DNA of 20,729 bases, taken from Corallococcus sp. CA054B (lineage in GTDB: Bacteria > Myxococcota > Myxococcia > Myxococcales > Myxococcaceae). The notes below the pieces were generated by a model. It was not told the DNA's origin. It did not search any database and saw nothing but the letters and a program-made list of their open reading frames with translations. Position numbers and translations under genes: made by a program. The number at the start of each line of letters is the position of its first letter. The first letter of the stretch is position 1. The stretch covers positions 1 to 20,729 of the forward strand of contig NZ_RAVY01000172.1 of the NCBI RefSeq assembly GCF_003611625.1, given 5' to 3'. This document shows, one piece after another, positions 1,105-2,431 of the stretch.

Positions 1105-1755
1105 ATGCCTGTCCTACGTGGTGCCGTGACCTTTTCGCGCTTCCGGACCGAGCCGGCCAAGGATGCGCCGTCCGACGTCAAGCGCTGGATGACCAAGGGA
1201 CTCAAGTCCCATGCATTCGAGCCCATCGACCGCCGCTCCGAGGAGGAGCGCGCCGCGGGGTTTGTCGAGTTGGAGAACCCGGAGTCCTCCGAGTTCGCCA
1301 CCGGCAACCTCTTCTATGGCGAGTACGCCCTCTTCGCCTTCCGCATCGACACGCTGAAGGTGCCCGCGTCGATGATGAAGTCGGAGCTGGACAAGTGGGC
1401 CGCCGCCTTCGGCAAGGAGAACGGCCGGCCGCCCGCGCGCGCGGAGAAGAACAAGCAGCGCGCGGAGCTCAAGCAGCTCCTGCGTCAGCGCGCCGTGCCG
1501 CGCACCAGCACGCTGGACGTGACGTGGAACCTGAAGACGCACACGGTGCAGGTCTGGGCCGCGTCGCGCAAGACGGTGGATGAGATCTGCGTGGCGCTGG
1601 AAGGCGCCCTCGCGGTGAAGGTGATTGGCATCACGCCCGCGTCCATGGCTCAGCGCGCGGGCATCGACGAGAAGGCCCTGGGCCCCACGGCGGAGCTCAT
1701 TGGCATGGACCTGCCGGCGACGGCTTCGGTGGAGGACGCCCATGGCGAGGCGTGA
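1105..1755 (+). CDS. rdgC: RdgC-family recombination-associated protein, N-terminal two thirds (split gene, or frameshifted)
   Basis: Internal ATG at 1105 of track ORF 409..1755; the upstream part of that ORF is compositional junk. ...RIDTLKVPASMMKSELDKWAAAFGKENGRPPARAEKNKQRAELKQLLRQRAVPRTSTLDVTWNLKTHTVQVWAASRKTVDEICVALEGAL parallels E. coli RdgC ...[86 protein letters not shown]. Stop at 1753-1755. Confidence 0.6.
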   Translation: MPVLRGAVTFSRFRTEPAKDAPSDVKRWMTKGLKSHAFEPIDRRSEEERAAGFVELENPESSEFATGNLFYGEYALFAFRIDTLKVPASMMKSELDKWAAAFGKENGRPPARAEKNKQRAELKQLLRQRAVPRTSTLDVTWNLKTHTVQVWAASRKTVDEICVALEGALAVKVIGITPASMAQRAGIDEKALGPTAELIGMDLPATASVEDAHGEA

Positions 1756-2431
1756 GCAGGCGAGGGAAGAGGCGGCGTTCGCCCGGGGCGATGTCGGAGT
1801 CGATGGTGTCGCCACGGAAGAGGAGAAGGACGAAGCCGAAGTCGAAAAGGGCAAGGCGCGCGAACAGCTCTTGCGCGGCCGGGCCTATCTGGGCCGCGAG
1901 TTCATGACGTGGCTGTTGTGGCGCTCGGAGTCGGGCGACCCCCTGGTCGAGCACGACGGCGCGGGCGTCGTCGTCCTCTTCCTGGGCAAGGTGGTGCTGC
2001 GCGGCGTGGCGGGCGACGTCACGGAGATGAGCGCCAAGGGCACGCTGGCGCCGTACTCGGAGAACGTGCGCCATTCGTTGGACCGGGGCCTGCTGGTGTC
2101 CCAGGCGCGGCTGCGCATCTCGCATGGCGAGCGCGAATACGAAGTCACGCTGGATTCCGAGTTCCTGGACATCCGCGCCGCAAAGCTGCCCGCGCTCATG
2201 ACGGAGGAAGAGGATGATCAGCTCTCCGAGCGTCTGGAGCTGACCGAGCAGCTCTCCGCCATCGTGGACGCGCTGGTGCAGGATTTCCTGGTCGTGCGCG
2301 CCGGACGCGCCTGGAGCAAGCAGGTGGTGCCCGCGCTGAAGGCGTGGATGAAGGGCGAGGAGAAGGGGAGCGACCTGCTCTCCAAGGCCGCCCGCGCCAA
2401 GGGTCGTGACGCCCGCGCCGCCCAGGGCTGA
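1742..2431 (+). CDS. rdgC: RdgC-family protein, C-terminal part; +1 frame relative to upstream ORF, 14-nt overlap
   Basis: ATG at 1742 inside track ORF 1625..2431; the first 39 codons of that ORF are R/W-rich junk. REFMTWLLWRSESGDPLVEHDG parallels E. coli RdgC LTEWVRSGSAPQGF, and the following SQARLRISHGEREYEVTLDSEFLD region parallels the RdgC C-terminal domain. High GC3. Confidence 0.6.
   Translation: MARREQAREEAAFARGDVGVDGVATEEEKDEAEVEKGKAREQLLRGRAYLGREFMTWLLWRSESGDPLVEHDGAGVVVLFLGKVVLRGVAGDVTEMSAKGTLAPYSENVRHSLDRGLLVSQARLRISHGEREYEVTLDSEFLDIRAAKLPALMTEEEDDQLSERLELTEQLSAIVDALVQDFLVVRAGRAWSKQVVPALKAWMKGEEKGSDLLSKAARAKGRDARAAQG

Follow-up and report, generated by a model that had tools for sequence, protein, structure and literature searches.

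Is an RdgC homologue that is spread over two overlapping open reading frames (ORFs) a damaged gene, a gene whose second part is reached by a shift of the ribosome, or a pair of genes whose products together make up one protein? The question is raised by a stretch of 20,729 nucleotides from Corallococcus sp. CA054B (contig NZ_RAVY01000172.1), the whole of which is referred to here as the window. A sequence-only reading of this DNA had noted an RdgC homologue with its N-terminal and central regions in frame 1 and its C-terminal region in frame 2, overlapping by 14 nucleotides (nt), and had left the choice between an authentic frameshift (a pseudogene or a sequencing error), a programmed frameshift and a genuine split into two coupled polypeptides. 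The coordinates given there are confirmed, and it is the last of these alternatives that is supported by comparison with orthologues. We consider it very probable that the locus is a genuine two-gene operon, kept in every Myxococcota genome examined, and that it encodes a divergent RdgC in two pieces. The features of the locus are as follows.

1105..1755, + strand: ORF1 (rdgC-N), from the ATG at 1105 to the TGA at 1753-1755, 216 amino acids, frame 1
1742..2431, + strand: ORF2 (rdgC-C), from the ATG at 1742 to the TGA at 2429-2431, 229 amino acids, frame 2
1742..1755, + strand: stop/start overlap of 14 nt, ATGGCGAGGCGTGA, with the ORF2 start codon at 1742-1744 and the ORF1 stop codon at 1753-1755
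1731..1735, + strand: Shine-Dalgarno-like GGAGG within the 3' end of ORF1, 6 nt before the ORF2 start, read from the sequence
2446..2486, + strand: GC-rich hairpin followed by UGUUUC, between ORF2 and a convergent DUF5953 gene, with an RNA folding energy of -39.2 kcal/mol (z=-5.3 relative to shuffled sequences)

Related loci were collected by scanning one genome per species with an alignment of the C-half core, which yielded 80 loci from independently sequenced genomes and metagenome-assembled genomes (MAGs), several complete genomes among them. These extend from Corallococcus (98% identity) through Myxococcus, Pyxidicoccus, Archangium, Cystobacter, Hyalangium and Anaeromyxobacter to Haliangiales and unclassified Myxococcota MAGs (33-40%). 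An ORF for the N-half is found directly upstream of the C-half ORF in all 80 loci and a single ORF in none of them, the N-half of the seven most distant loci being detected by profile only. Furthermore, substitutions between the window and related loci are ordered codon position 3 > 1 > 2 in both ORFs (against locus L014, the counts at positions 1/2/3 are 50/29/67 for ORF1 and 34/19/66 for ORF2), which argues that both are under purifying selection, and both frames look coding, third-position GC being 0.89-0.94 before the junction (frame 1, to position 1741) and 0.88 beyond it (frame 2, from position 1742), values to be expected of real genes where the genome is GC-rich. Protein searches returned 279 clusters for the N-half, the 120 listed being 199-297 amino acids long, and 508 clusters (at 90% identity) for the C-half, of which the 120 listed have 206-239 amino acids. 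The N-terminus of ORF1, MPVLRG, is likewise kept in orthologues.

A few of the records have peculiarities of their own. In L034 (about 3538-3600) and L057 (about 3850-3901), both of which are long-read assemblies, the N-half contains extra frame breaks, not shared by L054 and other close relatives, that are probably indel errors of assembly and not biology; the C-half start is standard in both loci. Pairs of myxobacterial RdgC genes also occur in records labelled Comamonas sp., uncultured Enterobacteriaceae or Klebsiella pneumoniae MAG (L022, L076 and L080), and these records are probably mislabelled or contaminated.

Identity of the two halves and position of the break

The relation of ORF1 to RdgC can be recognized from sequence. 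It matches the Pfam family RdgC, PF04381, with E=7e-10 and 39.1 bits (cut-off 25) over profile positions 22-157 of 298, a profile built from 31 orthologues finds residues 20-160 of E. coli RdgC (2owl_A, E=3.2e-10) as well as P. aeruginosa RdgC (2OWY, E=5e-7), and hhalign aligns ORF1 with E. coli RdgC at 96.4% probability. The cut-offs of the NCBIfam RdgC models (the PRK00321 equivalog and the subfamily) are not reached, the best score being 34 bits compared with the 227 of NF001464, and ORF2 has no match to these models. The centre domain of P. aeruginosa RdgC comprises residues 1-73 and 121-167, its tip residues 74-120 and its base residues 168-306 (PMC1885664), and from these limits and the matched range it follows that ORF1 corresponds to the centre and the tip/finger, that is to the 'gate' module. 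In the hhalign register, where template positions are one below the E. coli numbering (the query being without its first codon), E. coli R118, a residue of the gate interface, aligns with R129 of ORF1, which is arginine also in the family consensus, and the fingertip loop of ORF1, GRPPxRxEK, is basic and conserved. The conserved arginine and the basic loop together favour a predicted function in DNA binding.

ORF2 matches no family in Pfam, NCBIfam, PHROG or PADLOC, and since the PADLOC scan was without a match there is no tie to a defence system. When modelled alone (predicted local distance difference test score, pLDDT, of 79.9) the protein shows a five-stranded sheet and an accompanying short helix, preceded by one long helix and followed by another at the C-terminus. 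ORF1 and ORF2 were furthermore concatenated and modelled as a single chain from an alignment of 47 rows, giving a pLDDT of 85.6 and a predicted template modelling score (pTM) of 0.81, and a Foldseek search with this model returned only RdgC (2owl_A and 2owy_A) at E of about 2e-15, with a template modelling score (TM-score) of 0.71-0.73 when normalised by the target of 302-306 residues. Such a score is out of reach for the N-half alone, which accounts for 55% of the target. The model has the three-domain fold of RdgC, with a centre, an inserted two-helix tip/finger, and a C-terminal base made up of a five-stranded sheet and helices. As judged from the predicted structure, ORF2 is thus the RdgC base or 'horseshoe' domain, diverged beyond recognition by sequence. 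This would assign the RdgC base fold to a family to which neither Pfam nor NCBIfam gives a domain and which goes by 'hypothetical protein' in every source that names it, a family of 508 clusters at 90% identity and, by the C-half profile, 1305 at 50%; the presence of such a protein would imply an N-half partner. An alignment made by eye, which set ORF2 colinear with E. coli residues 175-300, is contradicted by the sole hhalign fragment and is not relied on.

Several observations weigh against the view that the pair is an RdgC in two pieces. A C-half profile has no match in the PDB by hmmsearch, hhalign of ORF2 with E. coli RdgC gives a probability of 0.2%, and Foldseek with the ORF2 model alone is without a match. 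The Pfam RdgC match ends at about profile position 160 even in ten fused relatives, in which the two halves form one chain. The assignment of ORF2 as a base domain rests on predicted structure, and the relative placement of the halves is taken from an artificial single-chain model for which only two alignment rows span both halves. In addition, the gate residue F120 of E. coli corresponds in the hhalign register to Val131 of ORF1, in a column that is variable in the family, and since Phe120 of the RdgC gate interface is essential in E. coli (PMC2965237), the interface between two N-halves may, to judge from this alignment, differ from that of canonical RdgC.

One may consequently ask whether ORF2 is simply an unrelated neighbour gene, overlapping a naturally short RdgC-like protein with which it shares no functional unit. 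This would account for its lack of sequence similarity to RdgC and to the families of all four collections, and for the negative Foldseek search with ORF2 alone, but it is difficult to reconcile with a concatenated model that reproduces the whole RdgC monomer, with the adjacency of the two genes in 80 of 80 loci, and with the existence of at least 20 natural single-chain proteins that join exactly these halves. We find this explanation highly improbable, and retain the reading of ORF1 and ORF2 as two pieces of one RdgC, which in outline have the following layout.

ORF1 protein (+ strand gene): centre and tip/finger domains, hinge-equivalent segment, and a variable tail of roughly 35 residues
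ORF2 protein (+ strand gene): N-terminal tail (AAFxRGDxGVDG), predicted base-domain core at about residues 45-205, and a basic C-terminal tail modelled with low confidence

The alignment of ORF1 to E. coli RdgC stops at residue 171, which corresponds to S160 in E. coli, and residues 172-216 of ORF1, like some 30-50 residues at the start of ORF2, are largely or wholly without an equivalent in the E. coli protein of 303 amino acids, so that the earlier estimate of about 60 extra residues at the junction was roughly right. The 45 residues of ORF1 that follow residue 171 include a nearly invariant P194-T195-x-x-L198 and are confidently modelled to about residue 200, while ORF2 begins with a tail of roughly 30 residues, conserved and of low model confidence, after which a long helix leads into the invariant motif LGREFxTW. 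Opening of the E. coli RdgC ring has been proposed to involve a flexing point at S160-N170 (PMC2965237), and this hinge maps to about residues 172-182 of ORF1, just ahead of the break. From the end of the alignment at S160 and these properties of the tail and linker we can conclude that the chain is broken inside an inserted linker, immediately after the hinge that joins the gate and horseshoe modules. The motif AAFxRGDxGVDG in the ORF2 tail occupies residues 11-22 (window 1772-1807; columns 54-70 of alignment A3). It is shared by split C-halves of the Myxococcia-type group, from Corallococcus out to distant Myxococcota MAGs. The two fused proteins that were aligned, P0001 and P0002, and the most remote split forms lack it. 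A role in docking or partner binding is possible.

Translation across the junction and limits of the operon

The manner in which ORF2 is translated can be judged from the 78 junctions that were tabulated. The two ORFs overlap by 14 nt in 56 of these, by 11 nt in three, by 8 nt in five and by 1 nt in one, and the remaining 13 are gapped by 3 to about 120 nt; one more locus, L074, which is not among the 78, has a gap of about 135 nt. The 14-nt geometry, an ATG with a TGA 11 nt downstream, is identical in all 56. Between -16 and -4 relative to the ORF2 start, 74 of the 78 loci have a Shine-Dalgarno-like 4-mer; for background windows or internal ATGs in these genes the figure is 19-24%. The motif, GGAGG or GAGGTG, is placed 6-9 nt ahead of the start. 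The start codon itself is ATG in 72 loci, GTG in four and TTG in two, and the swaps from ATG to GTG change the overlapping frame-1 residue from His to Arg; that the start codon is kept while this residue varies indicates selection on the start codon and not on the residue. In six of the gapped loci the two ORFs are in the same frame and separated by a single in-frame TAG; an ATG follows 9 nt later, and the TAGGAG that contains the stop codon serves as its Shine-Dalgarno motif. These six belong to one clade of freshwater MAGs (L071, L072, L073, L075, L077 and L079; in L075 the junction is at 3965-3979), and from their sequence one point mutation could fuse or split the gene.

A programmed +1 frameshift at or near the UGA of ORF1 would instead give an RdgC-like chain of about 440 amino acids as the main or a minor product. 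The notion has some appeal, as most loci have ORF2 in frame +1, the context CGTGAG is kept at 56 of the 78 junctions, a skip of one base at GCG-U-GAG reads into the ORF2 frame, and a purine-rich Shine-Dalgarno-like element is found upstream, as in prfB. The +1 frameshift of prfB takes place at a CUU-U site with the Shine-Dalgarno-like element about 3 nt upstream. The junction described here is however without a slippery site, since a tRNA on GCG cannot re-pair on CGU and GCG-UGA therefore permits no +1 re-pairing, and the Shine-Dalgarno-like motif is 17-20 nt from the ORF1 UGA but at an ideal 6 nt from the ORF2 ATG. No frameshift-stimulating RNA structure was found at the junction either, the folding being like that of shuffled sequence (z=0.75). 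Furthermore, strict retention of the ORF2 start codon, including the swaps that alter the frame-1 residue, is not what a frameshift would call for, and other lineages place the second half in frame 0 behind an in-frame stop or in frame +2, or have gaps of about 20 nt up to about 120-135 nt between the halves, arrangements that a +1 shift is unable to fuse. A programmed frameshift is accordingly very unlikely, and the parsimonious reading of the junction sequences is that two polypeptides are made by independent but coupled translation, any frameshift product being probably a minor one.

The remaining explanation, an indel of sequencing or assembly or a recent frameshift pseudogene, has a practically negligible probability. 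Nothing specific to the window speaks for it, although the extra N-half frame breaks of L034 and L057 do look like assembly errors, and the two-ORF structure in 80 of 80 independently sequenced genomes and MAGs, the purifying selection on both ORFs, the high third-position GC in the correct frame on either side of the junction and the consistent lengths of the listed clusters (120 of 279 for the N-half and 120 of 508 for the C-half) are all contrary to it. The sequence-only reading had itself proposed that a two-ORF arrangement with a conserved overlap in orthologues would point to a genuine split, and had suggested a search for a slippery sequence; the former is what the orthologues have, with an identical 14-nt overlap at 56 of 78 junctions, and the latter is lacking, so that of its three alternatives a frameshift by mutation or error is refuted and the split into coupled polypeptides stands. 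The locus is thus neither a pseudogene nor an assembly error, and it follows that the short 'RdgC' annotated across Myxococcota is half of a protein only.

Annotation and gene context are in agreement with a two-gene operon. In Corallococcus coralloides CP034669.1 both genes have already been called, as 'RdgC' (216 amino acids) and as an unnamed product of 229 amino acids, and the ORF1 protein is 100% identical to P0127, a 216-residue 'Recombination-associated protein RdgC [Corallococcus coralloides]'. The neighbours in CP034669.1 are a divergent Peptidase_S13 gene upstream and convergent DUF5953/DUF6310 gene pairs downstream, and these orientations, together with the strong hairpin after ORF2, mark the boundaries of an operon and so lend support to one of two genes. 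The hairpin at 2446-2486 is a probable end of this operon, as inferred from its structure and position, and is possibly a bidirectional terminator; a scan of 850-2650 for consensus promoters and terminators gave no match, the hairpin being unreported by the strict terminator scan.

Some features beyond the pair may also be mentioned. In the window the DUF5953 and DUF6310 genes overlap (2491-3261 and 3249-4307, both on the - strand), and in CP034669.1 three to four tandem copies of this pair are found directly downstream of the RdgC pair (L081, 7386-12651), in a layout that resembles a polymorphic toxin/immunity-type array. Further along, at 4658-6991 on the + strand, the window holds an ORF of 777 amino acids with the full domain set of Major Vault Protein, namely MVP_shoulder (E=3e-45), Vault, Vault_2, Vault_3 and Vault_4, and this is a bacterial homologue, in Corallococcus, of the eukaryotic vault shell protein.

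Fused relatives and evolution of the split

The two modules are not split in all members of the subfamily. The single-chain proteins P0001 (392 amino acids) and P0002 (394 amino acids) are 41-47% identical to concatenated ORF1 and ORF2 over 94-95% of its length. Fused members contain the two modules in the same order as the split pair, but P0001 and P0002 differ from the latter in being one polypeptide with a shorter linker and without AAFxRGDxGVDG. At an E cut-off of 1e-3 the C-half profile retrieved 1305 clusters (50% identity), and among the best 150 of these are 20 full-length fused proteins of 346-437 amino acids that have both halves, two shorter proteins with a partial N-half match, and 128 proteins with the C-half only, most of which are 165-260 amino acids long. 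Fused forms are interspersed with split ones in a rough neighbour-joining tree, and judging from this tree fission or fusion has probably occurred more than once. Repeated events of this kind would be easy where the ORFs of a pair are in frame and one stop codon apart.

The gene for P0002 is found on a Logan contig (SRR27197504_445254; L083 1-7563) in a block of genes on the same strand with overlaps of 4 nt, eight of nine of which match PHROGs. Its neighbours are a SNF2-type helicase, a DNA methyltransferase, a replication initiator and a DnaB-like helicase, all of them in a tightly packed phage-like replication module, and phages or prophages of GC-rich hosts may thus be carriers of fused genes of the RdgC type. 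No relatives were revealed when viral contigs were scanned with C-core motifs, so that the phage link of the fused forms is made through this one contig.

Proposed assembly of a split RdgC and comparison with known systems

If ORF1 and ORF2 are indeed the two pieces of one RdgC, the following course of events may be envisaged. ORF1 would give rise to the gate module of centre and tip/finger, and ORF2, translated from its own ATG at 1742 by means of the GGAGG 6 nt upstream that is embedded in the end of ORF1, to the horseshoe or base domain, the 14-nt stop/start overlap presumably coupling the two translations such that the halves are made in about equal amounts. The halves are predicted to dock non-covalently by way of what was formerly an intrachain interface between centre and base, so as to form the J-shaped RdgC protomer, and dimerisation tip to tip and base to base, as suggested by the fold, would then close a ring of two N-halves and two C-halves. 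Canonical RdgC is a ring-shaped dimer that holds double-stranded DNA in a central hole of about 30 Angstrom. E. coli RdgC inhibits RecA functions and interacts genetically with priA and recFOR (PMC2965237, PMC11077077), and the ring would, like that of RdgC, encircle double-stranded DNA and modulate or restrain RecA-dependent recombination. We infer assembly, DNA binding and the link to RecA from the fold and by analogy with the work on the E. coli and P. aeruginosa proteins.

One could go further and suppose that the break is functional and not neutral. A non-covalent joint beside the hinge would provide four openable ring interfaces instead of two, such that the ring might load on or leave circular or protein-bound DNA without finger-driven opening of the gate; AAFxRGDxGVDG would in this case serve as a docking or regulatory strap, and the stand-alone base-domain proteins would constitute an unrecognised modular family of DNA clamps. 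This is a speculative idea and we think it unlikely; otherwise the two-gene operon represents ordinary gene fission with translational coupling. Either way the locus amounts to a natural experiment, in which the chain is cut next to a proposed hinge and related lineages have fused as well as split versions, so that it can be tested directly whether an unbroken chain matters for loading of the ring. Among the papers covered by a literature search, none linked RdgC with Myxococcus, Myxococcota or gene fission.

Among known systems, the closest to the two-gene operon is RdgC itself (PDB 2OWL and 2OWY; PF04381), since ORF1 aligns to its centre and tip/finger, ORF2 is predicted to have the fold of its base domain, and the concatenated model can be superposed on the complete monomer. 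Canonical RdgC is however one chain of about 303 amino acids where there are here two overlapping genes for 216 and 229 amino acids, and the presence of all domains on one polypeptide of about 300 amino acids, characteristic of RdgC, is found neither here nor in any of the 80 loci. The split form furthermore has about 70 extra residues around the junction and a basic C-terminal tail, F120 is replaced by Val, and the predicted base domain is too diverged to be detected by sequence. The RdgC fold is found also in lambda RexA and in kinetochore Iml3-Chl4, which consist of a globular or centre module and a dimerisation or base module and bind DNA (PMC11077077). These have both modules on one chain, unlike the split pair, and are far weaker matches than RdgC, chains of the kinetochore constitutive centromere-associated network (CCAN) being weak Foldseek matches to the concatenated model; Iml3-Chl4 is moreover a heterodimer of two full-length paralogues and not one chain that has been split. 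Finally, the operon has the stop/start overlap, the internal Shine-Dalgarno motif and the split at a domain boundary in common with generic bacterial gene fission with translational coupling, from which it is mechanistically in no way different. What sets it apart is the nature of the protein, predicted to form a closed ring around DNA, and the position of the break, which adjoins the proposed hinge of that ring.

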